A stretch of 64,000 bases of DNA from Candidatus Omnitrophota bacterium (GCA_015233335.1 JADFXX010000003.1:93694-157693); one strand, 5' to 3'; numbered from the stretch's first letter, positions 31,773 through 64,000 are shown. Notes: generated by a model from the letters alone, not told the origin. Translations and numbers: made by a program.

Positions 31773-31830
31773 TTAGGATCCTTCGCTTTGCTCAGGATGA
31801 CTTATAGGGTCCTTCGTGATGCTCAGGATT
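31773..31830 (-). repeat. Two tandem copies of a second subfamily of the short palindromic repeat
   Basis: aggatccttcgctttgctcaggatgac (31773-99) and agggtccttcgtgatgctcaggattac (31804-30). Same architecture as the main family: 5-bp inverted arms around a tcg-ctt/gtg-gctc loop, followed by gac/tac. Confidence 0.8.
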
Positions 31831-31833
31831 ACG

Positions 31834-32691
31834 TCATATATTAGAGTCACATAGTTCCTCAATCGCGGATTTTAAACTGACCCTGAAGATGTGTTGTTTG
31901 TATTCGCTTGCACGGGTATCATAAATAGCTGGTGTTAAATGCGCTAATGCCTCATTTCCCAAGTCCTGTGAGGAAATACTTTTATTTAGGAATTCCTCTA
32001 ATACAAGGTCTCTTTGAGCAAAAGCGATCGTGTTATTAATGCCCACCCTTGTATTGAACCACTGCTTGCCATTAAATTCCGTTTTGACACATACCGCTAA
32101 TAAAGGGATATCCACGTGCAGAGTCTTTTTGACACGCCTATAAACAACTGAGGCTGTTGGTTTTGATTTAATGGTGACATGGGTAAATAATTTTTCACAA
32201 CGCGCCGCATTCTTAAAGAAATTTTCAGCTGAAATAATTTCTTCATGGCCATCAGAATCCAAGAAATGCATTTGGGCATCCAAAGCAACCATGACAGCCC
32301 CCATCTCTGTCCAAGTATAGCGGCAGGTTAGGTTGCCTCCTATAGTGGCCATATTGCGAATAGGGTTAGTTGAAATGTTACGGCATACTGCATGTAAAAT
32401 CCTTAAATGACCTGAAAGTAACGGGCTTTCAAATATTTCATTGATACGGGTCATGGCTTTAATTGTCAGGGTATCGTTGTGAAAGCTGATACCCTTGAGC
32501 TCATCAATCTTACCAAGACTTAAAACATGCCCGGCTGTTTTAGTCCTTTTGGTTTTAAGCAGTTTTAGGCTGTTTAACAAAAACGTGCCTCCGGCCAAGA
32601 CTTTGGAATCTTCCAATTCCTTATAAAGACGGGCCGCTTCAAGAGATGTCTTTGGCAAATGCAGCGTCAAGGGATTAAGTAACATAGTCAT
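31834..32691 (-). CDS. FAD-binding medium subunit of the molybdenum hydroxylase (CoxM/XdhB-like)
   Basis: VLAGGTFLL FAD-binding motif. Start is uncertain (ATG 32691 or 32685). Confidence 0.85.
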   Translation of the reverse strand: MTMLLNPLTLHLPKTSLEAARLYKELEDSKVLAGGTFLLNSLKLLKTKRTKTAGHVLSLGKIDELKGISFHNDTLTIKAMTRINEIFESPLLSGHLRILHAVCRNISTNPIRNMATIGGNLTCRYTWTEMGAVMVALDAQMHFLDSDGHEEIISAENFFKNAARCEKLFTHVTIKSKPTASVVYRRVKKTLHVDIPLLAVCVKTEFNGKQWFNTRVGINNTIAFAQRDLVLEEFLNKSISSQDLGNEALAHLTPAIYDTRASEYKQHIFRVSLKSAIEELCDSNI

Positions 32692-32747
32692 GAAGTATAT
32701 CAAAAATAAATACTTAAGCCAAGCATTTCGAATCCGGGAATAAATGT

Positions 32748-32776
32748 TTGACAACCCCCCTTGTTTGGCTTAACCT
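32748..32776 (+). promoter_or_regulatory. Putative promoter placing the TSS at the metH ATG (leaderless geometry)
   Basis: TTGACA (32748-53), a 17-nt spacer, TAACCT (32771-76), then 7 nt to ATG 32784. No SD is visible. Confidence 0.35.
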
Positions 32777-32783
32777 TTTAATA

Positions 32784-36496: not shown

Positions 36497-37711
36497 TCAG
36501 ACCTTACCAACAATTAATTTACTATATTTTTTATCAGGATAAATGAATAATGAATCTACCCGATCCCCTACGTATTTTCTAAGCCTGTGCGTAGATGCCC
36601 ACTTGGCCAACCCCATATACGAATTCAAGCTTGAACGAAGTTTTACCAGAGACTTGTGGTCATAACAGCTGGGGCTTTTTTCCCACTGGTGAACAAGGCT
36701 GACCATTTTGGCCGCTGTCTGCCCCCGAAGCCAACGGTAATAAGGCTTATGCACAAATCCTATAAAATCAATGCCTTTTTCTACGGGGGCTATTCTCTTT
36801 TTGAACGGGTGAAGTTCAAGCATAAGTTTCTGCGCACAGAATTCGCTGATACGCGAAAAATAATCATTCAACCTTCCCGGAGAAATATCCAGGATCACAA
36901 AATCATCAACATACCTGTAATAATACTTGGCCCTTAGAGTGTGTTTTACAAACTGGTCCAGTGTGTCAAGATAAACATTCGCAAAAAACTGGCTAGTCAA
37001 ATTCCCGATAGGCAGGCCGCACGATAGCGGTGTGTTCCAAAGGCTTTTGTGCCGGGGAACACGAGCGAACGCTTCTTTGGTCGACTTACACAAACAATTA
37101 TTTCTCGGATCATGAAAAAGCACATGCCTTGTCAGATCAAGAAGCCATTGTTCATGGATCCGCGGCGTTAAAAGCCCCAACAGAATATCCTTATTGATAC
37201 TGACAAAAAAATTCCTCACATCGCCCTGCAAAAAATACGCCTGTTCCTTCCAATTATGTGTGATACTTCTCATCCCAGCCCACAGACGATTGGATCCGTC
37301 CAGTGTTCCCCGTCCGGGGATACAGGCAAAACTGTTACGGATAAACGAAGGATAAAATCTCGGAGCAAGACGGTTATAAATCACATGATGTACAACGCGG
37401 TCGCGAAATGTCGACGCCCAAATTTCACGGATTTTAGGCGTTTCTACAACAAAGGCTACCGTGCGTCCGATGCGGTAATTCCCGGAAAGGAGTTCTTCAT
37501 AAAGGTCAAAGAGGTTCTTTTCAAGGTCAAACTCAAAAATCCGGGCGTGAATCGAATTGCGTTTGTTCTTACGGCAGTCAAAATACGCTGTCGCAAGTTC
37601 TTCAAACGTCAAATCCGTTTGATCAATATCGGGCCCCTGCGGAATTTCATCACCGGACACAACGTACGTAGTTGTTGGTGTTGGTCTTGTTGTTGTTGTT
37701 CTGGCTGCCAT
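36497..37711 (-). CDS. DGR reverse transcriptase
   Basis: RT motifs GDVRNFFVSI, LPIGNLTSQFFANVYL (the DGR-typical I/LGxxxSQ), YYRYVDDFVIL (YxDD) and GIDFIGF. The only in-frame ATG (37711) lies inside the TR, so the start is uncertain (GTG 37660 or TTG 37612 are possible). Confidence 0.9.
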   Translation of the reverse strand: MAARTTTTRPTPTTTYVVSGDEIPQGPDIDQTDLTFEELATAYFDCRKNKRNSIHARIFEFDLEKNLFDLYEELLSGNYRIGRTVAFVVETPKIREIWASTFRDRVVHHVIYNRLAPRFYPSFIRNSFACIPGRGTLDGSNRLWAGMRSITHNWKEQAYFLQGDVRNFFVSINKDILLGLLTPRIHEQWLLDLTRHVLFHDPRNNCLCKSTKEAFARVPRHKSLWNTPLSCGLPIGNLTSQFFANVYLDTLDQFVKHTLRAKYYYRYVDDFVILDISPGRLNDYFSRISEFCAQKLMLELHPFKKRIAPVEKGIDFIGFVHKPYYRWLRGQTAAKMVSLVHQWEKSPSCYDHKSLVKLRSSLNSYMGLAKWASTHRLRKYVGDRVDSLFIYPDKKYSKLIVGKV

Positions 37712-37779
37712 TGGTGAAGTTCACTCGTTTCGCGTTGTTAGTGTTGTTCTCCGTCGACGACCAATAGTTGGACGACGCA
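37653..37779 (-). repeat. DGR template repeat (TR)
   Basis: 127 nt homologous to 38406-38535. In the VR reading frame it is rich in AAC codons (ASSNYWSSTENNTNNAKRVNFTNGSQNNNNKTNTNNYVRCVR*). Confidence 0.9.
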
Positions 37780-37980
37780 CGGTGCGACAGGCCTCTTTTT
37801 ATTTGAGGATCCGGCCCCCTAAAGGGGCCAGTCCCTCAAACCCGCGTTCAACTTTTAAGATTGAACGAGATATGGGGTGCATAAAAAACCGCAACCGGGC
37901 CTGTCCCGAGATGACTCGCTCGCTGGGGATAACCGTGGCTCTCCCCATTCTGGCTCTCCCGCAGGGGACTCGATATTTTT

Positions 37981-38328
37981 TCACGCCTTACTTGCCGACT
38001 TCTTCCATCCTTCCGCCTGCCGGGAGAGCGATTCTGTCATTTCCACAAGGCCGGCATAATGTTTTATTGAAAGGATATGCATGTCGTGAGAAAGACGGAT
38101 CAAAAGTTCCATAACCAGAATTTTCTCAAGAATTTCATTAATGATTTTAACTTTTTCTTCACTGCTATTGGCCCGGTAAATCAGCACAATACAAGAGATA
38201 ATCTCATCCCTAAGCTTTTGGCCTAAGGTATATTTATGGTCTCTGGGGAAATCCTTTGTAACCAGCATGACCCTGCCAAGCAGTTCATAAGTTAATTTAT
38301 ATATCGGCAAATGTTGATAGCGCGCCAT
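37981..38328 (-). CDS. avd: Avd-like accessory variability determinant (four-helix-bundle / 23S rRNA intervening-sequence protein family)
   Basis: 115 aa. MARYQHLPIYKLTYELLGRVMLVTKDFPRDHKYTLGQKLRDE... matches the family pattern, with a basic C-terminal tail. Located between the target and the TR. Confidence 0.85.
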   Translation of the reverse strand: MARYQHLPIYKLTYELLGRVMLVTKDFPRDHKYTLGQKLRDEIISCIVLIYRANSSEEKVKIINEILEKILVMELLIRLSHDMHILSIKHYAGLVEMTESLSRQAEGWKKSASKA

Positions 38329-38348
38329 GATATTTCTCTAAAAATTTA

Positions 38349-38363
38349 CGCGCCTTCGGCGCG
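38349..38363 (-). other. GC hairpin between the target stop and the avd start (possible DGR target-recognition hairpin or attenuator)
   Basis: cgcgcc-ttc-ggcgcg forms a 6-bp all-GC stem. On the minus strand the loop is GAA. It lies 43 nt downstream of the VR end. Confidence 0.5.
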
Positions 38364-38396
38364 ACTAAAAAAACAAATAATCAAATAATCAAATCA

Positions 38397-39194
38397 TCAA
38401 TATCTCCGGACACATCGTACGTAGGCGTTGGTGTTGGTCTTGCTGACGCTGTTGTTCTGGCTGCCATTGGTGAAGTTCACTCGTCTCGCGCTGACAGTGT
38501 TGCTCTCCGTCGACGACCAATAGAGGGACGACGCAAATCCTGTTAACGGATGGGGAGAGTTACAAGTGCCATAAGAATTCGTTACACAAAGTGTACTATT
38601 AAGATAAAGCACATAAAAAAGTTCAGCTAATGATGGCAAATACCAATCATTATAGCCTCCATAATTGGAAGCTCCCATGGCTGTGCACCACTGGGCCGCT
38701 TTTGTATCAATATAATAAGGAGGGCTGGTTACATATTGGCCGTTGTCAAACGTCGTCTTCGGTGTCGTAACAGTCAAAATCAGGGTATTGCTCTTCCCAT
38801 CTTCATAATCATCAGCGCCCGTAGTAACACTATGCCCGCTTATAAGGTTTGGCGGCGTGTACGTCATATTGTGACTCGCCCATGCCATGTGTTGGTTATC
38901 AACGCCGCCGTTTCCGATGGTGCAGTTGGAGTCCTGACAGCCGCCGGGTGTCACCATGTAGTTCCACTCCTTGCCAGTTCCATAGGTGTATGTGCCGGCA
39001 CATATCGGGCCGCTTGCGATCTGATACCCTACCGCCTGTCCCACGCAAGGACCGGTCAGTGTCGGAGCTGTGCCACTGATCACTGCCCCGGTTAACTGGC
39101 CGCCACGGATGACTGTTGCATAGGATATTCTTATAGTCCAAGAAAACAACGTTATAAATACGCAAAAAAATATGAAAAATTTATGATGTGCCAT
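38397..39194 (-). CDS. DGR target protein: secreted, C-terminal DUF1566 (Lcl C-terminal, C-type-lectin-fold)-like domain carrying the VR
   Basis: Start set to ATG 39194 (MAHHKFFIFFCVFITLFSW..., a signal peptide). The GGYNDWYLPSLAEL and LYWSST motifs resemble DUF1566. The last 43 codons are VR. Confidence 0.85.
   Translation of the reverse strand: MAHHKFFIFFCVFITLFSWTIRISYATVIRGGQLTGAVISGTAPTLTGPCVGQAVGYQIASGPICAGTYTYGTGKEWNYMVTPGGCQDSNCTIGNGGVDNQHMAWASHNMTYTPPNLISGHSVTTGADDYEDGKSNTLILTVTTPKTTFDNGQYVTSPPYYIDTKAAQWCTAMGASNYGGYNDWYLPSLAELFYVLYLNSTLCVTNSYGTCNSPHPLTGFASSLYWSSTESNTVSARRVNFTNGSQNNSVSKTNTNAYVRCVRRY
38406..38535 (-). repeat. DGR variable repeat (VR) at the 3' end of the target gene
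   Basis: 130 nt aligning to the TR. 12-13 substitutions all fall at TR coding-strand adenines, plus one extra codon and one non-A mismatch near the 3' end. Confidence 0.9.
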
Positions 39195-39210
39195 TGTATT
39201 TACATTTTTA

Positions 39211-40275
39211 TTAGAATATTGACCAATTAGACCCATTGGAACAAACATCATAAGCCTGATAATTAGCATTGATGACAAGTATGCTTGCCCCATCAATTTT
39301 TTGGGATGAAGATGTGCCAATCGTAATATTATATGTGGCAGATTCACCTGCCCCATCCTTGATCCTATAGCAGCGTCCGGCAATGCCAACGGCCGTAGGA
39401 AGAGTGATCGCTATTGCCGCGTTATGTACGCTGAGATCCACATAAACAAGATAATAGGTATTATCCAAGGTGGTATTAACTGAAACAATCGTAAAAGCCC
39501 CTATCGTGCCTGCCGAAGCCCATGTGCCGTAGCCGTTGGCATCTGAAGTCAAAACGAACCCGCTTGAGGGAGACGTCGTTAACATAAAAGTTGTCATGCG
39601 TACTGTACCGTTGACATCCAATTCGGCTACGGGATAATATGAACCAATGCCTACGTTACCAACTAAAGTAGCATTTCCACTACCATCATCAAGTGTATTA
39701 TATGAAGTATAAACACTGCCGCCTTGATCTTGGATACCAATGCCTCCTCCTGCTGAGTCCCCAATATCACCATTAACATCTAGTGTATATGAAGGCTTAG
39801 CAGTTCCGATACCTACATTTCCGCCAGTAAAATTGGTCAATCCTGAGCCATCAACCTGCAGGCCTCCATTAACCTCCAAGGTCTGAACAGGGGAAGTGGC
39901 TCCTATATTGATGCCAACATTTCCGCCTGTCTGGTAAATGTTTGAAATGGTCAATGCTGTGGGACTGGAAGCCATTGGGATATAATTGGCAGTTAAGGAG
40001 TTGATGGATCCGTTAACGTTTGTCAATCCCGAGCCGTTGCCGGAAAAATACTTGGCGCTCACCGTACCGGCGACATCCAGAATCTGGCCGGGGTTAAGCG
40101 ATCCAATACCGACATTGCCCTGCATCACAACCAAAGCGGCGCTGGCGGGCTGGGTTGTGCCGATGCCTATTCTTAAATTGACGTTTTCGTTAAACGGATA
40201 ATTGGTGGCGCGCGACAAAGAGGGGCACGAAATCGTAATGAACAGAGAAATTATAAAATATAAATATAATGGCAT
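39211..40275 (-). CDS. Secreted repeat protein with tail-fibre-like GNVGIG(T/S)xxP...LDVxG repeats
   Basis: Signal-like N-terminus and at least 5 copies of the GNVGIG motif. Lies immediately upstream of the DGR target on the same strand. Confidence 0.65.
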   Translation of the reverse strand: MPLYLYFIISLFITISCPSLSRATNYPFNENVNLRIGIGTTQPASAALVVMQGNVGIGSLNPGQILDVAGTVSAKYFSGNGSGLTNVNGSINSLTANYIPMASSPTALTISNIYQTGGNVGINIGATSPVQTLEVNGGLQVDGSGLTNFTGGNVGIGTAKPSYTLDVNGDIGDSAGGGIGIQDQGGSVYTSYNTLDDGSGNATLVGNVGIGSYYPVAELDVNGTVRMTTFMLTTSPSSGFVLTSDANGYGTWASAGTIGAFTIVSVNTTLDNTYYLVYVDLSVHNAAIAITLPTAVGIAGRCYRIKDGAGESATYNITIGTSSSQKIDGASILVINANYQAYDVCSNGSNWSIF

Positions 40276-40334
40276 TATTTTAATTATAACAAATTCTATA
40301 ATTAAAACATTTTAATTTCAAAAAATTTAAGGAA

Positions 40335-40988
40335 TTAGCCTTGAGTATGGTGTTTAATATCGCGGCCTTCAACGATATAAATGACTTCTTCCGCGATATT
40401 CGTGGACAGGTCCGCGATGCGCTCAAGGTTGTGGGCGATACGCATCACATGTAAACAGCGGGGAATAACATCTTTCTTGCCCTTCATCAGTTCAGTCAGG
40501 TCTTTGAGGATCCGATCGCCAGCCTCATCGACGATATCATCACCCGCGCACACAGTAGTTGCCAAGGCGATATCTTCATGGACAAAGGCACTGATGCTGT
40601 CTTTGAGCATCTTCATGGTGCTGTCCCCCATGATTTTTAATTTCTCAGAAAGGCCATTCACGGGATTATTGATGAGAAACAGACCGCTTTCACAGATATT
40701 AACGGCGTGATCTGCCATGCGTTCCAAGTCCTTGTTCATCTTGATGATCATGATGACCATTCTTAGATCGACCGCTACCGGCTCAAATTGCGCAATGAGC
40801 TCCACACACATCCGTTCGATCTCGCGGTCATAGTCATCAGCCGCAGGCTCATTGGTATTGATCACTTCTTCTAACAAAGCAGGGTCACGATCAAGCAAGC
40901 CTTTGATACTGCGACCTAGCATGTCCTCCACTAGGGACGCATCCATTAATAGGTAATGTTTTAGTTCCGCGATTTTTTCTCTTAACAT
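40335..40988 (-). CDS. phoU: Phosphate signalling complex protein PhoU
   Basis: Two PhoU repeats. ATG 40988 has SD GGAGAGG 7-8 nt upstream; the ORF-track start at 41009 is a TTG. Confidence 0.9.
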   Translation of the reverse strand: MLREKIAELKHYLLMDASLVEDMLGRSIKGLLDRDPALLEEVINTNEPAADDYDREIERMCVELIAQFEPVAVDLRMVIMIIKMNKDLERMADHAVNICESGLFLINNPVNGLSEKLKIMGDSTMKMLKDSISAFVHEDIALATTVCAGDDIVDEAGDRILKDLTELMKGKKDVIPRCLHVMRIAHNLERIADLSTNIAEEVIYIVEGRDIKHHTQG

Positions 40989-41001
40989 AAAATCCTCTCC
41001 A

Positions 41002-41763
41002 TTAGCCAAATCTACCTGTAATGTAATCTTCGGTCACCTTACTAGAAGGTCTCGTAAAGAAGTCCGTGGTTTTATTAAACTCGATGATCTGCCCGTGCAT
41101 TAGAAACGCTGTCTTGTCAGAAACCCTGCCGGCCTGCTGCATGTTGTGGGTAACAACCACTATTGTGTATTCATCCTTCAATGTGCCCATCAACTCTTCA
41201 ATGCGCGCTGTCGCAATGGGATCCAGCGCCGAGCATGGCTCATCCATTAAAATGATCTGGGGGTCAATCGCAATCGCCCGCGCAATACAAAGCCTTTGCT
41301 GTTGACCGCCGGAAAGCGACATGGCGCTCTTGTTCAAATTATCTTTGACCTCTTCCCATAAAGCCGCACGCTTCAGACTTTTTTCAACAGCTTCATTTAA
41401 AATGCGCCGATCTTTAATGCCTACGATCTTAAGCCCGTAAGCAATATTCTCATAAATAGATTTTGGGAATGGAGTGGACTTTTGAAACACCATCCCGACC
41501 CTGCGCCTTAAACTGACTACATCTGTATTTTTATCATAAATATCCGTACCGTCAATTAAAACTTCTCCTTCCACACGCGTCTGCGGGATTAAGTCATTCA
41601 TACGATTAAAAATACGGATCAAGGTTGATTTTCCGCATCCCGAAGGGCCGATCATGGCCACGATCTGATGAGGTTCAATGGTCATAGAGATATTCTTTAA
41701 CGCCTGATGGGTGCCGTAATAAAAATTTAGGTCCTTGACTTTAATGCTTCCTTTAAGATCCAT
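41002..41763 (-). CDS. pstB: Phosphate ABC transporter ATP-binding protein
   Basis: Walker [10 protein letters not shown] and signature [14 protein letters not shown]. Start set to ATG 41763 ([17 protein letters not shown]) with AAGAGG upstream; the ORF-track N-extension is repeat sequence. Confidence 0.93.
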
Positions 41764-41781
41764 ATGTGCCTCTTTTTTAAA

Positions 41782-41858
41782 AGATTGTTTCGCTTCGCTC
41801 ACAATGACACCGAAATAATCGCTCACAATGACACTAGAAGAATCGCCCACCATGACAC
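41782..41858 (-). repeat. Short palindromic repeat: one full copy plus two truncated arm copies in the pstA-pstB spacer
   Basis: agattgtttcgcttcgctcacaatgacac (41782-41810), aatcgctcacaatgacac (41817-34) and aatcgcccaccatgacac (41841-58). Confidence 0.85.
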
Positions 41859-41861
41859 ATC

Positions 41862-42788
41862 CTATTTTCCTGACGACCAGCGATTGCGGCGCATCACATA
41901 AAATTGGGCCCAGCCGTTGATCAGCAATACCATTAAAATAAGAACGATCGCCCCTGCCCAAGCCTGACGGTGCCAGTCATCAAAAGGAGCAATGGCATAC
42001 GTAAAAACCTGCAGGGGCAGAGCTGCAATCGGTTCAGTCAGCGAACGCTGCCAATAATGATTTCCGAATGCCGTAAAAAGAAGCGGAGCTGTCTCACCCG
42101 CTACCCTTGCCAAAGCCACCATGATCCCTGTCGTAATACCCGCCAGAGCGGAAGGAATTACAATATCCACAGTAACCCTCCACTTAGGAACTCCTAAGGC
42201 CAAGCCTGCTTCCCTTAGCTGGGAAGGCACCATTCGTACAAACTGCTCGCTAGTGCGTGTGATCATAGGGATCATCATGATCCCCAATGCAAAGCCACCG
42301 GATAGGGCTGAAAAACTTTTAAGCGGCAGTACACAGACAATATAGGCAAATATCCCGTAAACGATCGAGGGGATCCCATTCATCACATCAGCCATAAACC
42401 GGACCACTTGGGCAAAATTCTGATTAGCATATTCACTTAAATATACCCCTGCCCCAAGACCGATCGGCACCCCCACACAGACCGCGAGACCTAATAAAGT
42501 GAAGGTTCCCGCGATCGCATTGGCCATGCCCCCGCCTTTCTCACCGACGGGTTTGGGAAGTTGTGTAAAAAAATCTAGATTAAGGGATGTAAAACCCTGA
42601 ATAAACAGATGAATCAAAATAGTAAAAAGAATAAAAAGCATAAAAACTGCACATAAGGTCAAAACATAGACCATGGCATGGTCCCAAAGAGCACGTTGAA
42701 AACGTGTCTGCTCAAAAGACGAACGTATAAGATCCTTAAAAGATTGCTTCGCTTCGCTCGCAATGACACTTGAAGATGGAAGCTTCAT
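41862..42788 (-). CDS. pstA: Phosphate ABC transporter permease PstA
   Basis: PstA-like 6-TM permease. ATG 42788 overlaps the pstC TGA (ATGA) and has AGGAG upstream. Residues 7-17 ([11 protein letters not shown]) are encoded by the repeat element. Confidence 0.9.
42741..42769 (-). repeat. Short palindromic repeat copy inside the pstA 5' coding region
   Basis: agattgcttcgcttcgctcgcaatgacac, identical to the core in valS. Confidence 0.9.
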
Positions 42789-43711
42789 TTAATCTCCTGC
42801 CCCGGACCTTTAGTCACTGACCATATCAAAATCCGAGCTAAAATATTTACTACAATAGAAACCAAAAACAATACCAAACCGATCTCAATTAATGATGACA
42901 AATACATATTTGTAGTTGCTTCCGCAAATTCATTGGCAAGGACGCTGGCTAGAGTATATCCCGGAGAAAACAAAGACGCCGTTATCACAGGATTATTTCC
43001 GATGATCATGGTCACGGCCATTGTCTCGCCAATCGCTCGCCCTAAGGCCAAAATCACCGCACCCAAAATCCCTACCTTGCCATAGCTTAAAACAATATCT
43101 GAGATCGCCTCCCAACGAGTAGTCCCCAAGGCATAGGCGCTTTCCTTATAGACCGAAGGAACTGCCATAATCACTTCCCGGGATACTGAAATAATAAAAG
43201 GGACTATAATAATAGCTAAAATGACACTGGCGGATAGAAAGCTCACTCCGTAATTAGGCCCCTGAAAAAATGGTAAAAATCCCAAATATTTGCCTAAAAA
43301 AGGCTGGACCGTATTACGCATAAACGGTACTAGCACAAAAATGCCCCAAAGACCGTAAATCACACTTGGAATGGCCGCCAAAAGGTCTACAAGTATCGAA
43401 ATAGTCTTAGACACCTTAGGAGGCGCATATTCAGCCAAATAAACGGCCGCCCCCACCCCGACGGGGACAGCCAGTAAAAGCGCTACGAAAGAAGTGACGC
43501 AGGTGCCGAAAATGAAAGGCAAAGCACCAAAATTCTCTGCAACGGGGTCCCATGTGCTATGGAATAAGAAACCAAATCCAAATTTATTTAAAGTTAAATG
43601 GGACGCTGAAACTAATTGAAAAAAAATACCAGCGACAAGCATCAGAATGGAGATAGGGAAAACCGCCAATACCCTTCTGAAGACAATGTCGCTGGTATCT
43701 CGTCGAATCAT
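42785..43711 (-). CDS. pstC: Phosphate ABC transporter permease PstC
   Basis: PstC-like permease in conserved pstSCAB order. Confidence 0.92.
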   Translation of the reverse strand: MIRRDTSDIVFRRVLAVFPISILMLVAGIFFQLVSASHLTLNKFGFGFLFHSTWDPVAENFGALPFIFGTCVTSFVALLLAVPVGVGAAVYLAEYAPPKVSKTISILVDLLAAIPSVIYGLWGIFVLVPFMRNTVQPFLGKYLGFLPFFQGPNYGVSFLSASVILAIIIVPFIISVSREVIMAVPSVYKESAYALGTTRWEAISDIVLSYGKVGILGAVILALGRAIGETMAVTMIIGNNPVITASLFSPGYTLASVLANEFAEATTNMYLSSLIEIGLVLFLVSIVVNILARILIWSVTKGPGQEIK

Positions 43712-43781
43712 ATGCCGCTCTTATGTACGAGCCTACACAAAATCAATCTATGTGCGGACCGACACCAGGTCGGCCCTTACA

Positions 43782-44792: not shown

Positions 44793-44813
44793 ATCTAATC
44801 CTTTCTTTGAATA

Positions 44814-46247: not shown

Positions 46248-46272
46248 AACTCCTCCCTGTTGGTTTTGTTTA

Positions 46273-46491
46273 TTAATAAAATAAATTACGTCCTAATATC
46301 AAATTTTGAAACCCGGACTTCCCTAATATCCTTCTAAGATGATGGATATCTGATTCAACATCCTTAAGAGAATCGCATAAAAAGTCGGAATCAATATCCT
46401 GTTGTTCTTCCATATTCGTCAAAAGAGTGTTCAACCGGTTAACATGCAAACGTAAATGAGACATCACCAGATCTCTATCAGTATTCGACAT
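46273..46491 (-). CDS. 72-aa hypothetical protein, first gene behind the Pho-box promoter
   Basis: AAGGAG SD 5 nt upstream of the ATG. No recognisable motif. Confidence 0.55.
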   Translation of the reverse strand: MSNTDRDLVMSHLRLHVNRLNTLLTNMEEQQDIDSDFLCDSLKDVESDIHHLRRILGKSGFQNLILGRNLFY

Positions 46492-46515
46492 AATACTCCT
46501 TTATTATGTGAGCTA

Positions 46516-51269: not shown

Positions 51270-51281
51270 GAAGGGTATAGC

Positions 51282-52286: not shown

Positions 52287-52296
52287 AGGGGGCTGA

Positions 52297-52923
52297 CTAA
52301 TTATGTTTGACTATAATAGATTCAACGACATTGGCGACATCTTCGCAAATATCCAATACTGTTTCCGCATCCTGATAAATTTCCTTCCACTTAATGATCT
52401 CTATAGCGCTTTTGGTCTCAAAAAGTTCCATAAAAACAGCGTCACGCATGGCATCTCCTACATTTTCCAAACGGTTGACCTCAACACAAGCGGCGAGGAC
52501 CGCTTTAGACCCGTTTTTAAGACGCAAACCTTTAACAGCCTTGGATACGGTTAAAACGGATTCTTCAATGACCTTGGCAAATTCCATCAAATGGCGGTCC
52601 CCTCCCGGGATTTTATAAACTTTTATGCGGACGACCATGGTATTGATCATATCCGTTATATCATCTAATTCCTTAGTCAAAGCATGGATATCCTCACGGT
52701 CAAAAGGGGTGATGAACGTTTTATTAAGTTGTTCGATGATCGAATGTGTGGCCGTGTCCCCCTTGCTTTCAAGGTGTTGGATCGTTTGGTAAGCTGATTC
52801 TTCGATCAGGCCGGGGGTCGCCACAATTTCTTTAAATTTTTTTGCCGCAAGGATTGCGCATTCAACCTGCTCTTCAAAAAGGTTAAAAAAATCAAATTCA
52901 CGCGGAAGGAAATTAAAGATCAT
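52297..52923 (-). CDS. DUF47 / PhoU-related protein partnered with PiT
   Basis: About 205-aa helical protein of the type found upstream of pit genes (FDREDIHALT...D motif). Confidence 0.8.
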   Translation of the reverse strand: MIFNFLPREFDFFNLFEEQVECAILAAKKFKEIVATPGLIEESAYQTIQHLESKGDTATHSIIEQLNKTFITPFDREDIHALTKELDDITDMINTMVVRIKVYKIPGGDRHLMEFAKVIEESVLTVSKAVKGLRLKNGSKAVLAACVEVNRLENVGDAMRDAVFMELFETKSAIEIIKWKEIYQDAETVLDICEDVANVVESIIVKHN

Positions 52924-53072
52924 AAGAATTCCTTATTTTTAAATGAAGTTAATAAACTGAAGTTGTATGCAAGAATATCATAGATTATGTGAAGCAACAA
53001 GAAAAACCCTCCTAAAACGATATTTGAGTTAAGTTCTGGACTTGGCTCAAACACCGAAACCGGGGAGGCTTA

Positions 53073-53097
53073 AATAAAGGTATCCGTCACCTTTATT
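53073..53097 (-). terminator. Hairpin just downstream of the BNR-repeat gene
   Basis: 9-bp stem aataaaggt/acctttatt with a 7-nt loop. No clear U-run, so terminator function is uncertain. Confidence 0.35.
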
Positions 53098-53103
53098 CTT
53101 TAT

Positions 53104-55224
53104 TCAAAACGTCACCTGTGTTAGATTTTGGACTTGAGTTAGATTGGATGCTTTTCCGCCGATGGCGGATACATATAAACCAAAACCACTTGATTCAGCT
53201 ATCAAATGGCTTGCATCGCTGGAACCGGCGGCGGCACTAAAAGAATAACCAGCATTGTAAAGATCTGCAGGGAGATTGCTTGGGCTCCAAGTGATGCCCG
53301 CGTCTGTCGACTCATACAAACTTAAATCATCTCCTACTACAATATAATTTCCGTCACTGGACATAACACCTGTCGCCCAACTCTGATCACTCCAAGTTGA
53401 TATCCAATAATCAGTTGGGCTTGTCCAATGAGCGCCCCCATCATATGAAAAATATAAACCTCCCGGATTCGTGCCGGTAGCCGCCGCGGCCATCATGATA
53501 CTCCCGTCAGCGGACATAGCAGTAACATTCCAGTCTAAATCAGCATTTAAACCAGAGGGCCTTATTTCACTCCAACTGTAAACCCCGCCGGTTAGGATGC
53601 CAAGATATAAACGTCCTGCGAAACCATCCCAGTCAAAATTATTACCTGCCATCACATAAGTTCCGTCACCAGATATAGCCGTTGTCACCCAATCTCTACG
53701 AACACCAATTGCCGCAGTCCCTGCTTCTGTCCATGTGATCACACCTGCTGCTAAAGTACCGGTATATAAACGTCCTTGATTAGCGTAACTCCCCACTATC
53801 ATATGTTTATTATCCGTAGCAATTGCGCCTGTTTGCCAAGGTTTAAGAACATTCCCTGGTGGTGTCGTTAGACTCCAACTTGGAGTAGCAGTAGTCCCAT
53901 TAGTTGAAAAATATAAATGTCCATTAGAATAGCCTGCCAGCAAAATTGTCCCATCAGAAGAACTGGCGGAAAGATTCCAATTTCTGTTAAAATTACCTGA
54001 AGGCTGAATTTCGCTCCACGTTGCTCCTCCATTAATTGAACGATACAATCGCTGATCATGCCCTGCCATTAGATATTTTCCATCACCGGAGCTGGCTACA
54101 CAATTCCAGTTTTGATCAATTACAGGCTTAGTTTCACTCCAATTCGCCCCTCCATTCATCGAAACAAACACCTGTCCCCCACTAATCCCGGCTATCAGAT
54201 GTGAGGCATCACTGGACATAGCCCCAGTAGTCCAACCATAATTGACAGCCCCTGCCGGTTGGGTTTCACTCCAGCTGTAAACCCCGCCGCTTAATGTGCC
54301 AAGATATAAACGACCTATCAGCGCTCCAGCGAATAGATGACTTGCGTCACCAGAACTGGCGCCAAACTCCCAAAGGCCATTTAAACCACTACTGGTCCAA
54401 GAAATTATCCCACCGGACAAAACACCGGTATATAATAGCCCCCCATAGATCCCTGCCATATAGCGGCTTCCGTCATTGGAAACAGTGACAAAGGTCCAAT
54501 TTTGTTCAGAGACTCCAGCTGGTTGAGTTTCGTTCCAAGTTGCCCCTCCATCAGCCGAAAAAAATAAACGGCCTCGATTGCCCCCACTATTGCTGTATTC
54601 TCCTACAATCAAATGACTCCCATCACCGGAGCTGGCGGCAGTATACCAATACTGATCAGTCCCATTAGGATCCGGATAGGTTTGGCTCCAATGTGCGCCC
54701 CAATCACTTGATACCCACATGTGCCCTGTACTGGATCCTGTATAAAAATATTCTCCCGCAATCAAATGACTTCCGTCACTGGAACTGGCCGCCGCATACC
54801 AGTATTTGTCATTATTTCCATCCGGCCGGATTTCAGTTCAGGTAATACCCCCATTGACCGAAAGAAATAAACGTCCTGAAAAGTAATAACCCCCAACAAG
54901 CATATGACTGCCATCATTGGAAATGGCCAAAGCCCGCAGTATTTGAATACCAACCTGATATGAACTCCAACTAACGCCCCCATTGGTTGAAATATAAATA
55001 AAATTGATTTGAGGCAGCAACGCCAAGTAATTACCGTTACCGGACATGGCGCTTTTATACCAACTATAATTTGCTGAAAATACTGGACTTTGCTGTTTGA
55101 TCCATGGCCGGTCTGCGTGGGCTAAGGCAGTTAGGAAAAGACTGATGATGAAAAATAAAGATAAAAGATTGCTTCGCCCCGTTGGGGCTCGCAATGACAC
55201 TTCTACTAATTTTCGTAATGACAT
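53104..55224 (-). pseudogene. BNR/Asp-box repeat beta-propeller protein interrupted by one in-frame TGA
   Basis: ORFs 54838-55224 and 53104-54765 are in the same frame, separated only by TGA 54838-54840. Many SxDGGxxW-type Asp-boxes are present. The N-terminus has a signal-like segment partly encoded by a repeat element. Confidence 0.75.
55166..55200 (-). repeat. Variant copy of the short palindromic repeat with an extended GC stem
   Basis: agattgcttcGCCCCgttGGGGCtcgcaatgacac. It is translated as SLRAPTGRSNLL in the BNR gene N-terminus. Confidence 0.85.
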
Positions 55225-56770: not shown

Positions 56771-59476
56771 TTAAGCTAAATTTGCTAAAACACTTTCAAG
56801 CGCCGCAATCTCTTTATTTAAAGTGCCTAATCGTTCTCTTTCTTTGTTAATGATATCTTCCGGCGCTTTAAGGGTAAAAACAGGGTCATGAAGACGGATA
56901 TTTAAGGAATCGACATTTTTCTTTTTTTGATCTATCGCGGTATTCATACGGATCTTTTCAGCATTAAGGTCAACAAGACCTGTCAAAGGAATGAAAACCT
57001 TGGTAGAACCGATTAAAGCTGTCGCGGAATTCTTGACAGGCGCTATTGACGCATTAATGACCAAATCCTTAAGACGGCCCAAACGTTGAATATGAAGAGA
57101 ATTATCCTCCAAAACTGCTTTAATGCCATCCTCAGAAGGAATGATATAAACATCCAGCGTGTCATGAGACTTGATATTCCATTGTGTTCGAATATTGCGT
57201 ATTGCGCCTATGATATCAATCACAGACTGCATCTGCAAATCGGCTTTAGTATCGATCAGCAAACCTTGACGGATAGGCCATGCGGCTCTGGATAGACATA
57301 TGTCCGAAACGTTCAATTTGCTGTATATCTCTTCGGTCACAAATGGGATGAAAGGATGCATCATTTTTAAAGAATTTTCCAGAACAAAAACAGCTGTTTT
57401 TTGGATACGGGTATCAGTAAATTGAGCTTTGATCAATTCCAAATACCAGTCACAATAGTTTCCCCAAAAGAAATCTTGAATTAATATTTCAGCTTCTGAA
57501 TAACGGAATTGCTCGATACAATGGCTCACTTTTTCTAATGTGTCATAAAATCGGGCCAATATCCATCGGGAAGGCAGATCAAGATGGTCTAAATTAAGCC
57601 CCTGCGTATCTAATGTCGGGCTGCAGTTCATAAAAACAAGACGAGACGCATTCCAGATCTTATTGGCAAAATTACGCCCGATCTCAAACTTTTCTTTGGA
57701 AATAAAAATATCCTGCCCCGAGTTGATGATCAGGCTAAATCGCAGAGCGTCTGCCCCATATTCATCAATGATCTCCAGAGGATCAATGGCATTGCCTAAA
57801 GATTTTGACATTTTCCGCCCTTTAGCGTCACGGACTGTTCCATGAATTAGAACATCGGAAAAAGGCTTGTTTCCCATGAATTCATAGCCAGCCATGATCA
57901 TGCGCGCCACCCAGAAAAACAGGATTTCAGAGGCGGTCATCAAGGTGTCAGTAGGGTAAAAATATTTCAAGTCCTCATTATCTTTAGGCCAGCCTAATGT
58001 CGCGAAAGGCCACAGCCATGAGGAAAACCATGTGTCCAACACGTCTTCATCCTGAATCAAGTCAACAGTCATTCCATGTTTAGCTTCTGCCTGTGCCATA
58101 GCTTCATAACGGGACCGGGCAACAAATACATTTCCTTTATTGTCGTACCAGACAGGAATACGATGCCCCCACCAGATCTGACGGGAAATGCACCAATCCT
58201 GGATGTTTTCCATCCAGTTGTTATATACCTTTGTCCAATGCGCAGGATGAATTCTTATATTATTATTTTGAACAGCTTCAAAAGCAGGCTTGGCTAAAGG
58301 CTTCATACTGACAAACCACTGTTTAGATAGATATGGCTCAACCACAGTATCACAGCGATAACAATGACCAATAGCATTCTTATGGTCTTCGATCTTATCA
58401 AGACAGCCTAAAGTCTCTAAATCGGCAAGAACCTGCTTGCGGGCCTCAAAACGGTCCAGCCCACTATATTTACCTCCTTGTTCGTTAATTCTGGCATCAG
58501 GGTGCATAACATTGATCTTGGGAAGGTTGTGCCGTTGGCCCATCAAAAAGTCGTTAGGATCATGCGCCGGAGTTACTTTGACCGCTCCTGTACCAAAATC
58601 TGCAGACACAAAATCATCCGCTATGATCTTAATTTCACGATTCATTAAAGGAAGAATGAGTGTCCGGCCGATCAGTTGAGAATAGCGGGGATCTGCGGGA
58701 TTAACCGCCACCGCGGTATCTCCCAGCATAGTTTCGGGACGGGTGGTCGCGACAACAATGTAAAAAGATTGCTTCGCTTCGCTCGCAATGACACTGGATT
58801 TTAAAAGAGACTGACACGATTCGCTTGGATTGACACTGGATTCTAAATTGACACTGGATTTTATGGGATATTTAATATAATAAAGTTTGCCGTTTTTTTC
58901 TTTATGTTCAGCTTCCTCATCTGAAAGTGCCGTCTGGCAGCGCGGGCACCAATTGATAATGCGTGTCCCCTGATAAATTAAACCTTTATTGTATAAGGAT
59001 ATAAACGCTTCATTGACAGAGTTGCTATAATCATCATCCATGGTAAAACGCGTACGGGACCAATCGCAGGAAGATCCTAATTTTTCCAATTGACTAATGA
59101 TCGTATCTCCATACTCTTTCTTCCATGCCCAGAGACGTTTAAGAAACTCCCCGCGGCCTATGTCCTGACGTGTTTTGCCTTCCTTGGCTAATTGTTTTTC
59201 AACGACATTTTGTGTGGCAATCCCTGCGTGGTCGGTTCCGGGCATCCAAAGGGCTTGGAATCCATTCATGCGTTTGTAACGGACCAAGATATCCTGCAGG
59301 GTGTTGTTAAGCGCATGGCCCATGTGTAGAATTCCTGTCACATTGGGCGGCGGAATGACAATGGTAAATGGCCTTTTATGCCCATCAGCCTTGAGGTGAA
59401 AGATATTGTTATCTTTCCAAAACTTAAGCCATTTATCTTGGGTTTCTTGGGGATTATATTTTGAAGAGAGTTCCAT
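56771..59476 (-). CDS. valS: Valine--tRNA ligase
   Basis: HIGH-type motif (PPPNVTGILHMGH), KMSKS, a CP1 editing domain and a C-terminal coiled coil. Contains a repeat-derived insertion of about 20-25 aa before VVATTRPET. Confidence 0.95.
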   Translation of the reverse strand: MELSSKYNPQETQDKWLKFWKDNNIFHLKADGHKRPFTIVIPPPNVTGILHMGHALNNTLQDILVRYKRMNGFQALWMPGTDHAGIATQNVVEKQLAKEGKTRQDIGRGEFLKRLWAWKKEYGDTIISQLEKLGSSCDWSRTRFTMDDDYSNSVNEAFISLYNKGLIYQGTRIINWCPRCQTALSDEEAEHKEKNGKLYYIKYPIKSSVNLESSVNPSESCQSLLKSSVIASEAKQSFYIVVATTRPETMLGDTAVAVNPADPRYSQLIGRTLILPLMNREIKIIADDFVSADFGTGAVKVTPAHDPNDFLMGQRHNLPKINVMHPDARINEQGGKYSGLDRFEARKQVLADLETLGCLDKIEDHKNAIGHCYRCDTVVEPYLSKQWFVSMKPLAKPAFEAVQNNNIRIHPAHWTKVYNNWMENIQDWCISRQIWWGHRIPVWYDNKGNVFVARSRYEAMAQAEAKHGMTVDLIQDEDVLDTWFSSWLWPFATLGWPKDNEDLKYFYPTDTLMTASEILFFWVARMIMAGYEFMGNKPFSDVLIHGTVRDAKGRKMSKSLGNAIDPLEIIDEYGADALRFSLIINSGQDIFISKEKFEIGRNFANKIWNASRLVFMNCSPTLDTQGLNLDHLDLPSRWILARFYDTLEKVSHCIEQFRYSEAEILIQDFFWGNYCDWYLELIKAQFTDTRIQKTAVFVLENSLKMMHPFIPFVTEEIYSKLNVSDICLSRAAWPIRQGLLIDTKADLQMQSVIDIIGAIRNIRTQWNIKSHDTLDVYIIPSEDGIKAVLEDNSLHIQRLGRLKDLVINASIAPVKNSATALIGSTKVFIPLTGLVDLNAEKIRMNTAIDQKKKNVDSLNIRLHDPVFTLKAPEDIINKERERLGTLNKEIAALESVLANLA
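58766..58862 (-). repeat. Short palindromic repeat (full copy plus 3 truncated arm copies) in frame inside valS
   Basis: agattgcttcgcttcgctcgcaatgacac (58766-94), followed on the + strand by ctgacacgatt, ttgacactggatt and ttgacactggatt. Encodes [32 protein letters not shown]. Confidence 0.9.
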
Positions 59477-61048: not shown

Positions 61049-61049
61049 T

Positions 61050-62273
61050 TTAGATTTGCTCCAGTTTAAACACTTTGTGTAAGGCCTTGACCGCTTTATC
61101 TGCCAAATCTTGTGAGATAATACAAGAAACGGAAATTTCAGAGGTGGAGATCATCTCAATATTGATCTGATTATCCGCCAGGGTCTTAAACATTTTTGCG
61201 GCAATACCGCTGTGGGAACGCATACCGGAACCCACCATCGATACTCGGGCAATGTTTCGATCTTCTAATATTTCACCGGCACCGATCTTTTCGCCTATGG
61301 CGTTGGTCGCTTTGATCGCTTTGTTTAAATCTGCTTTGGTTACGGTAAAAGAAATGTCGGATAATTTGTCATGAGGCACATTCTGGACAATGGTATCCAC
61401 ATTAATGCCTTGTTTTGAAATCTCTTCAAAAATCTTAGCCGCGATGCCGGGCTTATCTGGCACTGAACAGATGGTGATTTTGGCTTCATTTTTATTACAG
61501 GTGACCCCGCGAACAGCAATTTCTTCCATTTTTTCGGTTTCTTTGATGATCATGGTTCCTTCCTCCTTAGAAAAGCTTGAACGGACATGTAAAGGGATAT
61601 TAAAACGTTTGGCTACCTCAATAGAACGTGCCTGCATGACCTGGGCACCCAAAGAAGCCATTTCCAGCATTTCCTCAAAAGTGATCGTCTTAATTTTTTG
61701 CGCTTCTTTGACAATGCGCGGATCGGCCGTATAAATACCATCCACATCCGTATAAATTTCACAAACCTTGGCTTTGAGGGCTTTGGCCAATGCGACGGCA
61801 GTTAAATCTGACCCGCCGCGTCCTAATGTTGTAATCTCATCGTTACTTGTCACTCCCTGATAGCCTGCCACGATGACAATTTTATTCTCCTTGAAAGCCC
61901 GGCTGATACGTTTACCGTCAATGGTGATAATACGCGCCTTGGTATGGGACTTGTCTGTCTTTATACCCACCTGACTTCCGGTAAAAGATATAGCATCGAA
62001 ACCTAACTCTTTAATGGCGATCGCTAAAAGGGCACAGGACATCTGTTCGCCTGTCGATAAAAGCATATCCATTTCACGCTCAGGCGGGTCCTGACTTAAT
62101 TTCAATGCCAAAGCCTCCAGCTCATCAGTCGTATCCCCAAGCGCTGAGACCACGACCGCTATATCGGTATGTTTGTTCTTATAGGCCGTCACACGCAAAG
62201 CTACATTTTTAATGCGGTCAATATCAGCGACTGAAGAACCTCCGAATTTTTGTACAATAATTTCTTTTTCCAT
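61050..62273 (-). CDS. lysC: Aspartate kinase
   Basis: VQKFGGSSV N-terminus, an amino-acid kinase fold and two C-terminal ACT domains. Confidence 0.93.
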   Translation of the reverse strand: MEKEIIVQKFGGSSVADIDRIKNVALRVTAYKNKHTDIAVVVSALGDTTDELEALALKLSQDPPEREMDMLLSTGEQMSCALLAIAIKELGFDAISFTGSQVGIKTDKSHTKARIITIDGKRISRAFKENKIVIVAGYQGVTSNDEITTLGRGGSDLTAVALAKALKAKVCEIYTDVDGIYTADPRIVKEAQKIKTITFEEMLEMASLGAQVMQARSIEVAKRFNIPLHVRSSFSKEEGTMIIKETEKMEEIAVRGVTCNKNEAKITICSVPDKPGIAAKIFEEISKQGINVDTIVQNVPHDKLSDISFTVTKADLNKAIKATNAIGEKIGAGEILEDRNIARVSMVGSGMRSHSGIAAKMFKTLADNQINIEMISTSEISVSCIISQDLADKAVKALHKVFKLEQI

Positions 62274-63485
62274 CTATTTTCCTCTCTCCTTGCGTATAAA
62301 ATATTTAACCATGTCCTCACCGCTTTCAAATCTTACACCGGCCTCAGCCGCTTTTTTTTCCGAATAACTATCAATGCCCTTCTTAATAGGAACACCTTCA
62401 CCCCACATCACAAATGGCACCGGAGTCCGTGTATGCGTGCGCAGGGAAACAGGTGTAGGATGATCGGGACAAATTAATACCCTCACACCTTTGGGTTCCT
62501 TAAAATGTTTGAGGATTGGACCTACAATCTCCTTATCAAAATGTTCACAACATTTGACTTTGGCTTTCCAATCCCCATTATGCCCTGCTTCATCAGTTGC
62601 TTCAACGTGAACGTAGACAAAATCATGTTTTTTTAATGAATTAAGGGCATATTGAGCTTTGCCTTTATAATTTGTGTCGTAATATCCATTTGCTCCGGGG
62701 ACATCAATGACATTGAGCCCCGCTAAACGGCCAATACCGTTGACTAAATCTACCGCTGAAATGATCGAGCCGCTTAAGCCATAACGGTCTTTAAATGACG
62801 GCAGATGAGAACGGCTCCCTTGCCCCCATAACCATATCATATTGGCCTGATGTTCGCCTTGTTTTTCGCGCATGATATTGATCTGATGTGTTGCTAAATA
62901 TTTATTGGATTTATCCATAAGATTGACCAAAATATCGCTTTGAGGTCCAGCGGGCAAAAAAGATTTGATCGACTGATCCATGATATCATGCGGAGGCGTT
63001 GTTTTGATCTGAAGCATTTTGGCAACACTAAGTGTTTTTAGGACCATCAAATGACGATAACTTTTTCCCGGATAAAAACGCACGTCCGGCCAGTCAATAG
63101 ACCGCTGTAAATAATCAATGAGATTATGTGCCTCATCCGATGAAATATGTCCGGCACTATAATCGACCATGATGTTTTTCTTGACCGTAACCAAATTACA
63201 CCTAAACGCCACTTCATCGTCTTTAAGACTGATCCCCATACTTGCCGCTTCTAAAGCTGCCCGGCCTGAAAAGCTTGTTTCTGGGTCATAGCCTAATAAG
63301 GACAAATTTCCGATATCAGAACCCGGCGGCATGCCACCCGGGATTGTCTTAACTAAAGCGGAAAGGCCGTTTTGCGCCATATAGTCCATGTGCGGCGTAT
63401 CTGCTTTCTCCATGGGGGTCTTGCCGCCTAATTCTTTTAAAGGCTCATCGGCTAAACCATCCGGAACAAGAATAATATATTTCAT
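62274..63485 (-). CDS. Cofactor-independent phosphoglycerate mutase-like protein (ApgM family; possibly the proposed alternative homoserine kinase)
   Basis: MKYIILVPDGLADEP... N-terminus and a metalloenzyme-superfamily pattern. ATG 63485 is preferred over the GTG at 63497. Lies directly upstream of lysC and cimA. Confidence 0.8.
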   Translation of the reverse strand: MKYIILVPDGLADEPLKELGGKTPMEKADTPHMDYMAQNGLSALVKTIPGGMPPGSDIGNLSLLGYDPETSFSGRAALEAASMGISLKDDEVAFRCNLVTVKKNIMVDYSAGHISSDEAHNLIDYLQRSIDWPDVRFYPGKSYRHLMVLKTLSVAKMLQIKTTPPHDIMDQSIKSFLPAGPQSDILVNLMDKSNKYLATHQINIMREKQGEHQANMIWLWGQGSRSHLPSFKDRYGLSGSIISAVDLVNGIGRLAGLNVIDVPGANGYYDTNYKGKAQYALNSLKKHDFVYVHVEATDEAGHNGDWKAKVKCCEHFDKEIVGPILKHFKEPKGVRVLICPDHPTPVSLRTHTRTPVPFVMWGEGVPIKKGIDSYSEKKAAEAGVRFESGEDMVKYFIRKERGK

Positions 63486-63493
63486 GATGACAT

Positions 63494-64000
63494 TCACCTG
63501 GTGTCATTGCTTCGCTTCGCTCGCAATGACACATATTTTAGTAATTCTTTTGCTAATGTTTGCTTGCAATCCGTTTTACTTAAAACTTCCCCATCTGCAT
63601 TAACAATATAGCCCTGATAACCGTTCTTTAAAGTGTTGGCCACAACAAGGTCACAGCCTGATTTGCTAAAAAGTGTTTTAACTGTTTTAAAAATATTTTT
63701 AGGATCTAACCTTGATCCTAATTTAAAACCTACTAAAAAGCTTTCAGGACTTAAGAGCTTGATCTGTTCGATCAACTTGGGAGTCCTCACTAAACGTAAT
63801 GTCAAAGGCTTAGCAGATGTTATTTTATTTTTGTTAACCTTCCCAACCCTGAAATCAGAAACAGCCGCTGCATGGATAACAACATCATATTTTTTAACAA
63901 GCTCTGCTTTTAAAAGACCGGCTAATTCATCAAAAAAACGGTATTTGATGATTTTAATACCCCGGTCCGACAGAGAGTGTGTCACCGGTCCTTCAATCAC
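63494..64000 (-). CDS. coaBC: Phosphopantothenoylcysteine synthetase/decarboxylase CoaBC, C-terminal (CoaB) part; 5' end outside the window
   Basis: AAAVSDF motif and CoaB-like sequence. The ORF is open to the window edge. Confidence 0.85.
   Translation of the reverse strand: MIEGPVTHSLSDRGIKIIKYRFFDELAGLLKAELVKKYDVVIHAAAVSDFRVGKVNKNKITSAKPLTLRLVRTPKLIEQIKLLSPESFLVGFKLGSRLDPKNIFKTVKTLFSKSGCDLVVANTLKNGYQGYIVNADGEVLSKTDCKQTLAKELLKYVSLRAKRSNDTR
63501..63532 (-). repeat. Most symmetric copy of the short palindromic repeat, forming the coaBC 3' end
   Basis: gtgtcattgc-ttcgcttcgctc-gcaatgacac, with perfect 10-bp inverted arms. Encodes the last residues ...[10 protein letters not shown] of coaBC. 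Confidence 0.9.

Follow-up and report, generated by a model that had tools for sequence, protein, structure and literature searches.

Repeat copies in the window

The window analysed here is a 64,000-nt stretch of a metagenome-assembled genome of Candidatus Omnitrophota bacterium (GCA_015233335.1, JADFXX010000003.1:93694-157693), and the element in question is a short hairpin-forming repeat that was found at eight sites in it, all on the minus strand. The 29-mer GTGTCATTGCGAGCGAAGCGAAGCAATCT gave five minus-strand matches with 0-3 mismatches (41782, 42741, 46591, 58766 and 63504), two of them (42741 and 58766) perfectly matching the consensus, and 0 matches in 100 shuffles. Together with a variant at 55163-55201, these matches are the six core copies of the original prediction, with two positions refined (63504 and 55163). 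Two sister copies had also been proposed at 31773-31830: one was recovered at 31777-31801, and the second proved to be degenerate. The copies and their derivatives are located as follows:

31777-31801, minus strand: sister-subfamily copy GTCATCCTGAGCAAAGCGAAGGATC with an ATCCT/AGGAT outer stem, in an operon spacer that separates the genes for the FAD-binding and 2Fe-2S subunits (coxM/coxS) of a xanthine-dehydrogenase-family enzyme.
31806-31835, minus strand: degenerate tandem sister copy GACGTAATCCTGAGCATCACGAAGGACCCT, beginning at the stop codon of the upstream gene.
41782-41810, minus strand: solo copy between pstA and pstB, in a spacer within the operon; its outer stem is compensated (ATTGT/ACAAT), and an AAGAGG Shine-Dalgarno-like sequence and the pstB ATG come after it.
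41819-41842 and about 41843-41861, minus strand: two tandem 24-nt "head" duplications (GTGTCATGGTGGGCGATTCTTCTA and GTGTCATTGTGAGCGATTATTTCG), starting 3 nt past the pstA stop codon.
42735-42782, minus strand: 48-nt in-frame insertion in pstA after codon 2, made of a 13-nt leader, the core (42741-42769) and TTTAAG, and translated as 16 amino acids (aa).
46591-46619, minus strand: diverged solo copy with a GCGAGGC inner hairpin, in a divergent intergenic/promoter region just upstream of a Pho-box-like direct repeat.
55163-55201, minus strand: variant with an enlarged inner hairpin (GCCCC-AAC-GGGGC) in the first codons of a secreted repeat-protein open reading frame (ORF), translated as SLRAPTGRSN.
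58766-58858, minus strand: 93-nt repeat-derived block in valS, with an intact copy (core 58766-58794), a 42-nt degenerate copy (58799-58840) and an 18-nt head fragment (58841-58858).
63504-63532, minus strand: what reads as a collapsed full palindrome (GTGTCATTGC...GCAATGACAC) with a 10-bp stem, in the last coaBC codons and 9 nt ahead of the apgM start codon.

An nhmmer census of the window gave no further copies, only partial duplications of the 5' head and the degenerate copy and head fragment at 58799-58858. The first 31.7 kb of the window was free of copies, though the genes there are also mostly on the minus strand, and all eight sites fell in the next 32 kb. Nearly all genes neighbouring the copies share their strand. 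In the copy at 55163-55201 both flanks are kept and the centre is replaced by GAGCCCCAACGGGGCGAA; ATGTCATTACGAAAA was found upstream of 55201, and in-frame GTG and TTG codons lie within the copy.

In-frame copies and their orthologues

The repeat is translated in frame in four window genes, in the two frames that had been predicted: VIASEAKQS in ValS and PstA, and the SLRAKRSN/SLRAPTGRSN type in CoaBC and in the secreted repeat-protein ORF (54838-55224). For three of these genes the insertion was confirmed by the comparison with relatives lacking it that had been suggested at the outset, using orthologues for ValS and PstA, and profile boundaries and a syntenic relative (locus L230) for CoaBC.

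The ValS loop between YxxKYPxK and VATTRPETM is six residues long (e.g. DNPDQF) in about 100 of 120 orthologues, and the loop is empty in L230. The window protein carries 31 repeat-derived residues there, before VATTRPETM (about +25 aa). This ValS is 100% identical to P0001, in keeping with a Candidatus Omnitrophota source. At least 17 of the 120 orthologues have inserts at the same loop, from several repeat families: VIASEAKQS (P0021), the full element VIARSEATKQS...AMT (P0016 and P0081), HPERSEGS, SFPRKRES, SFPNAxxGNP and SDRH...KLVPVT.

PstA begins with MK(D/E)xIHxSFERTR in 77 of 120 orthologues, and the window gene has a clean 48-nt (+16 aa) insertion after codon 2, at a site where the pstA ATG overlaps the pstC stop codon; the PstA profile match begins only at residue 37. 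The CoaBC profile match ends at residue 157 of 168 and the L230 protein ends with ...LVKILL*, so that the window repeat adds about 11-12 aa at the C-terminus. In the secreted repeat-protein ORF, the copy lies in the n-region of the signal peptide and is read in a basic frame. The profile boundaries place the inserts outside conserved domains, and no Pfam family matched the translated inserts.

A second recurrent hot spot was seen in a protein of up to 1909 aa (L233, L247, L256, L309 and L343; e.g. L343 1494-7221), where a VIASEAKQS insert occupies a homologous position (..KVMLEEDYL.., insert, ..LGSQIVREI) and is compounded in some contigs with VIPAKAGIQ or a tandem VIASPSSS.

The coxM/coxS and coaBC/apgM junctions of L230 hold hairpin repeats of other, GTAG-headed families. 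At these junctions, where the window has the GTCAT family, the GTAG-headed repeats of L230 (GTAGGGGCGGACCTTGTGTCCGCCC and GTAGGGACGCAAGATCTTGCGTCC) lie at about 5841-5931 and about 20610-20641; the coxM-like gene reads through one of them, which supplies its C-terminus.

Anatomy and folding of the repeat

Each arm consists of a GTC head, an AT-started outer stem (usually 5 bp, ATTGC/GCAAT or ATTGT/ACAAT), a GA/GAA internal loop and a GCGNAGC mini-hairpin (GCGAAGC in the window consensus). Inverted arms of up to 10 bp around a 12-nt loop had been described; 10-bp arms are present only in the 63504 copy, the others having 5 bp and CTTTT as the 3' flank, and the "loop" is itself structured, as GA, GCGAAGC (GC-GAA-GC) and GAA. 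Compensated changes were found in two window copies: ATTGT/ACAAT (TTGT/ACAA) at 41782 and GCCCC-AAC-GGGGC at 55163.

For the covariation test, family members were detected in 2.5 Mb of motif-centred loci by unpaired positions only, so that pairing was not presupposed. The outer stem covaried: N4/N4' pairs that are complementary throughout came in 9 distinct combinations, whereas 1000 shuffles averaged 1.9 and never exceeded 8. The inner hairpin covaried as well: of 143 distinct variants, 33 had a perfect stem of 4 bp or more, where shuffled sequences would yield about 0.6, and the inner loops were mostly GNA closed by C:G (GCGAAGC, GCGCAGC, GCGTAGC and CCGAAGG). Single mismatches comprised 4 G:U and 6 A:C; as there was no G:U (G:T) excess, nothing in them points to one RNA strand.

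Beyond the original prediction, the window copies turned out to be halves of a longer palindrome, which in its full form is an imperfect inverted repeat of 65-90 bp with a two-tier hairpin as each arm. The arm sequence is GTCATTGCGAG. The exact 32-mer is stop-free in five of six frames and is present in more than 120 metagenome contigs, in most of which it is followed by a short A/T loop and then by AAGATTGC(TT/CA)CGTCGC(C)TTCG(G)CTCCTCGCAATGACAC, an inverted copy of a slightly longer variant. Hairpin formation, a test of which had been suggested at the outset, was seen in the computed fold of the full element as DNA (-33 kcal/mol, z = -10, two 3-nt bulges). Solo copies folded no better than shuffles under nearest-neighbour parameters (ViennaRNA), with an RNA fold of -5 kcal/mol (z about 0). 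The solo result may reflect the standard parameters, which miss the stability of the mini-hairpin: GCGNAGC is extraordinarily stable as DNA and much less so as RNA (Hirao review, PMC13037366).

Full elements and solo arms numbered 48 and 45 in viral contigs, 91 and 28 in genomes, and 55 and 31 in metagenomes; of the copies outside the window, 49-73% were full elements. The window itself holds solo left arms and no intact doublet. The sole exception to the solo arms is the 63504 copy, which can be read as a full element that a deletion between its two GCAAT segments has collapsed. Duplicated heads, repeating about every 24 nt, also occur in other contigs (e.g. L256, L269, L279 and L307). The duplicated unit in valS takes in a host AAA codon, which suggests local slippage rather than repeated insertion. 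Tandem arrays of the 26-nt arm, with a period of 34-37 nt, were observed in L198 (at least six copies) and L145.

Distribution of the family

Unrelated flanks surround the exact 24-mer CATTGCGAGCGAAGCGAAGCAATC in 109 IMG/VR viral stretches and in over 120 stretches each from GTDB genomes and metagenomes. Among the matches listed, it occurs in about nine phyla (Pseudomonadota, Bacteroidota, Cyanobacteriota, Chloroflexota, Planctomycetota, Acidobacteriota, Desulfobacterota, Fibrobacterota and Omnitrophota), a range that had not been anticipated. These matches include isolate genomes of Bradyrhizobium, Afipia, Bosea, Methylobacterium, Hymenobacter and Calothrix, and metagenome-assembled genomes of Legionellales, Coxiellaceae, Rickettsiales, Desulfomonilaceae, Planctomycetota, Chloroflexota, Acidobacteriota, Ignavibacteria, Chitinispirillales and Omnitrophota. 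The carriers have G+C contents of 25-70%. Partial matches in unannotated DNA were also present in curated phage and plasmid collections, though only in 6 and 7 records, respectively.

The target-site test was carried out on 156 full elements from all fetched loci, and the ORF, orientation and frame tests on the 32-mer copies; ORF analysis of high-GC loci was left aside because long spurious open frames confound it. The full elements showed no target-site duplication beyond chance, the length distribution of flank repeats being equal to the shuffled expectation. The repeat had been called REP/MITE-like, after repetitive extragenic palindromes (REPs) and MITEs (miniature inverted-repeat transposable elements): the family is indeed palindromic and REP-like, and the lack of target-site duplication sets it apart from a classical MITE.

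Positions drawn at random from the same loci lay deep in ORFs in 62% of cases, the copies in only 19% (three-fold depletion, p = 3e-22). Residence in the frame of essential genes is tolerated, as seen from the ValS, PstA and CoaBC comparisons; that it is selected for, the other option originally proposed, does not agree with this depletion. Twelve copies were flanked on each side by 100 or more open codons, and nine of them were in the sense orientation and in the VIASEAKQS frame.

No Rfam family matched the window at the gathering score, and all that E-value mode brought up were generic hairpins below threshold. Among the papers searched, none contained the peptides or the DNA strings.

Search for a mobilising enzyme

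Pfam missed E. coli RayT at E <= 0.001 and was hence not used in the search for REP-associated tyrosine transposases (RAYTs). With E. coli RayT as the query (phmmer and hmmsearch), a single RAYT-like (Y1 transposase) ORF was found in the window and the 2.5 Mb of loci. This ORF (L244, 12421-12915) is flanked by a different repeat (GAACTGTCCCCG), in the form of the inverted repeats AGAACTGTCCCCG and CGGGGACAGTTCT. The flanking repeats resemble the SDRH...KLVPVT inserts of some ValS orthologues. When the motif's neighbours in 350 loci were clustered, phage structural proteins and transporters emerged, and no transposase. A conserved flank in about 19 metagenome contigs was considered as a mobilising gene and was rejected, being a methylase-like gene. 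A literature search on REP transposases in alphaproteobacteria found nothing.

Origin and maintenance of the repeat

On balance we favour the view that the repeat is a non-autonomous selfish DNA palindrome, akin to REPs and to REP doublets forming hairpins (REPINs), that its in-gene copies resemble the Rickettsia palindromic elements (RPEs) discussed in PMC1779305 and PMC10969869, and that selection decides which insertions survive. Presence or absence of the repeat at orthologous sites, with identical copies in unrelated flanks, argues for mobility, and the biases in frame and position argue for selection as a filter on the insertions.

The element would spread as a single-stranded DNA hairpin; the DNA-type mini-hairpin core points to such an intermediate, as does the lack of the strand or orientation signal expected of an RNA element. 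A nuclease or transposase acting in trans would process the hairpin without creating a target-site duplication, in the manner of Y1/HUH enzymes on REPs and IS200/IS605 ends. Selection would then purge the copies that break genes. Survivors would lie in spacers between operon genes, in the opening or closing codons of a gene, and in surface loops that tolerate them, the last of these with a stop-free, hydrophilic frame. Slippage and deletion at the hairpin would give rise to solo arms, tandem head duplications and collapsed palindromes, and such decayed forms would be everything that the window holds.

Several observations weigh against a selfish, REPIN-like palindrome. No cognate transposase was found in the window and the motif-centred loci. 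The solo arms at 42741 and 58766 match the consensus perfectly, which is odd for decayed remnants, and solo copies fold no better than shuffles. The head is GTCAT, where classical REPs have GTAG, and the core is identical across phyla, where REPIN-RAYT systems are lineage-specific and vertical. The other-family hairpins at the same junctions in L230 could also mean that a hairpin there is useful to the host.

More tentatively, the GTCAT-headed mini-hairpin repeats might belong to a single superfamily that spans phyla and is transferred horizontally, phages being among its carriers. The 24-32 nt core would then be fixed by a conserved putative enzyme, other than a classical RAYT, which reads the GA/GAA loop and GCGNAGC as single-stranded DNA, and the same protein loops and operon junctions would be recolonised. 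Core identity across about nine phyla, a misfit with REPINs as vertical and lineage-specific systems, points to a putative mobilising or recognising activity.

It appears unlikely that the hairpins are instead host-selected RNA elements of operons, protecting or processing 3' ends or acting as weak attenuators, which tune the expression of neighbouring genes and for which mobility is secondary. Some E. coli REPs have been shown to set the relative expression of neighbouring operon genes. Here, copies do sit at the pstA/pstB, pstC/pstA, coxM/coxS and coaBC/apgM junctions, two of which hold hairpin repeats of other families in L230; solo copies elsewhere often end 15-25 nt ahead of a Shine-Dalgarno sequence and start codon, and the 3' flank CTTTT would also fit. 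However, the copies between co-directional genes showed no orientation preference (18 sense and 26 antisense), a count that also restricts the single orientation relative to transcription, claimed originally for every copy, to the window. Moreover, solo copies fold poorly as RNA, GNA triloops favour DNA over RNA, the single mismatches lack a G:U excess, copies also lie in coding sequence and upstream of a promoter (46591), and Rfam holds no matching family. A terminator scan called no copy terminator-like, and the reading of the repeats as intrinsic terminators was rejected on this result and on the solo RNA fold. It is possible that junction hairpins are useful to the host in mRNA fate; the orientation data, the weak RNA folds and the absent terminator features speak against it.

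We regard as very improbable a role of the repeats as single-stranded DNA signals for the replication machinery (primase or primosome entry, or hairpins free of single-stranded DNA-binding protein), like the single-strand initiation (ssi) signals of G4 phage and RSF1010. The GCGAAGC/CCGAAGG core is also present at phage and plasmid single-strand initiation sites (PMC13037366), and copies were found on viral contigs, but copy orientation had no relation to GC skew or replication strand in 233 loci. The copies are also patchy in the window (0 in 31.7 kb against 8 sites in the next 32 kb), and their presence varies between orthologous sites.

That the inserted peptides are functional protein modules, with the DNA repeat as a by-product, is hardly credible. 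The use of one frame by nine of the 12 deep in-ORF copies and the basic frame in a signal-peptide n-region would suit such modules; against them stand the extragenic location of most copies, the two frames used within the window, the other frames and repeat families in the same ValS loop, the position of the inserts outside conserved domains and the lack of a Pfam match. Assembly or chimera artefacts, conceivable in a metagenome-assembled genome, can be set aside with near certainty, given that the same sequence recurs in hundreds of independent assemblies, including complete isolate genomes, that in-gene copies keep the reading frame and that copies differ by compensated substitutions.

The in-frame Omnitrophota insertions and the related families in the same ValS loop of at least 17 orthologues suggest that short hairpin repeats may, in environmental genomes, commonly alter protein length and give rise to spurious small ORFs, an effect that has been overlooked. 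The family accounts for recurrent peptides of metagenome protein catalogues, such as DCFASLAMT.

Other features of the window

Compared with syntenic L230, the window has about 19 kb extra (about 36497-55224), between the 226-aa gene after nadC and metH. This block holds Pho regulon genes, a retroelement and the repeat protein, and four of the eight repeat sites lie inside it. The other features were as follows:

36497-39389, minus strand: diversity-generating retroelement, with a reverse transcriptase ORF (36497-37711) carrying an IGNLTSQ motif. The target ORF (38397-39389) has at its 3' end a variable repeat (38427-38535) that shares 84% identity with the template repeat (37671-37779), and 13 of their 17 differences are at template adenines.
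46530-46573 and 48741-48784: 44-nt segments, 82% identical, each with a TGTGAAC direct repeat at 11-nt spacing. One is found upstream of the porin-pstSCAB operon and the other upstream of a PhoB-like response regulator gene, and from this position they look like Pho boxes.
53104-55224: secreted repeat-protein gene, apparently split (ORFs 54838-55224 and 53104-54765), with strong internal 63-nt repeats; it may contain a frameshift or be a pseudogene.

Comparison with known systems

REPs and REPINs owe their mobility to RAYT (Y1/HUH) transposases (Bertels and Rainey 2011, PMC3116915; PMC5581495; PMC3479197), and REPINs have been reported to be vertical and lineage-specific (PMC3116915; bioRxiv 10.1101/2022.05.22.493013). 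The present family is like them in being a short imperfect palindrome whose 5' head and stem irregularity are conserved, in its unit of two inverted copies around a short spacer that forms a long bulged hairpin, and in its strong extragenic bias, its lack of target-site duplication and its many solo copies. It differs in its GTCAT head, in place of GTAG or GT(A/G)G; in having no flanked RAYT gene in the window and the motif-centred loci; in a core that is identical across about nine phyla and hosts of 25-70% GC, in contrast to lineage-specific, vertical REPINs; and in copies that are translated inside genes. On account of three of these differences, namely the missing cognate RAYT, the non-GTAG head and the cross-phylum identity, the family stands as a candidate member of the REPIN-RAYT systems. 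It is recognisable as a REP-type repeat for which no Rfam or Pfam family and no literature description were found, and its cross-phylum conservation and repeated hits in the same loop could set it apart.

With classical DDE-derived MITEs (PMC10969869), the family shares small size, terminal inverted repeats, absence of coding capacity and many copies. Here, however, no target-site duplication and no related autonomous insertion sequence were seen, and the whole element is palindromic rather than its termini alone.

The mini-hairpin DNA GCGNAGC/GCGNNAGC (PMC13037366) is matched by the invariant centre of the element, GCGAAGC, and by its variants, which are C:G-closed GNA triloops. It is a structural motif rather than a repeat family, and its known natural sites are phage and plasmid single-strand origins (PMC13037366).

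The likeness to RPEs lies in the in-frame, stop-free palindromes at tolerated positions of essential genes (here valS, pstA and coaBC), together with intergenic copies. RPEs were reportedly described by Ogata et al. in 2000. RPE-1 to RPE-8 are about 100-150 bp long and restricted to Rickettsia and relatives; by this description the present family differs in its size (29-90 bp) and its cross-phylum range, and it differs also in that most of its copies are extragenic. To our knowledge, in-frame palindromic insertions in essential genes are textbook matter only for Rickettsia; if the GTCAT-headed repeats do form one superfamily, they would be a general source of such peptide insertions well beyond that genus.

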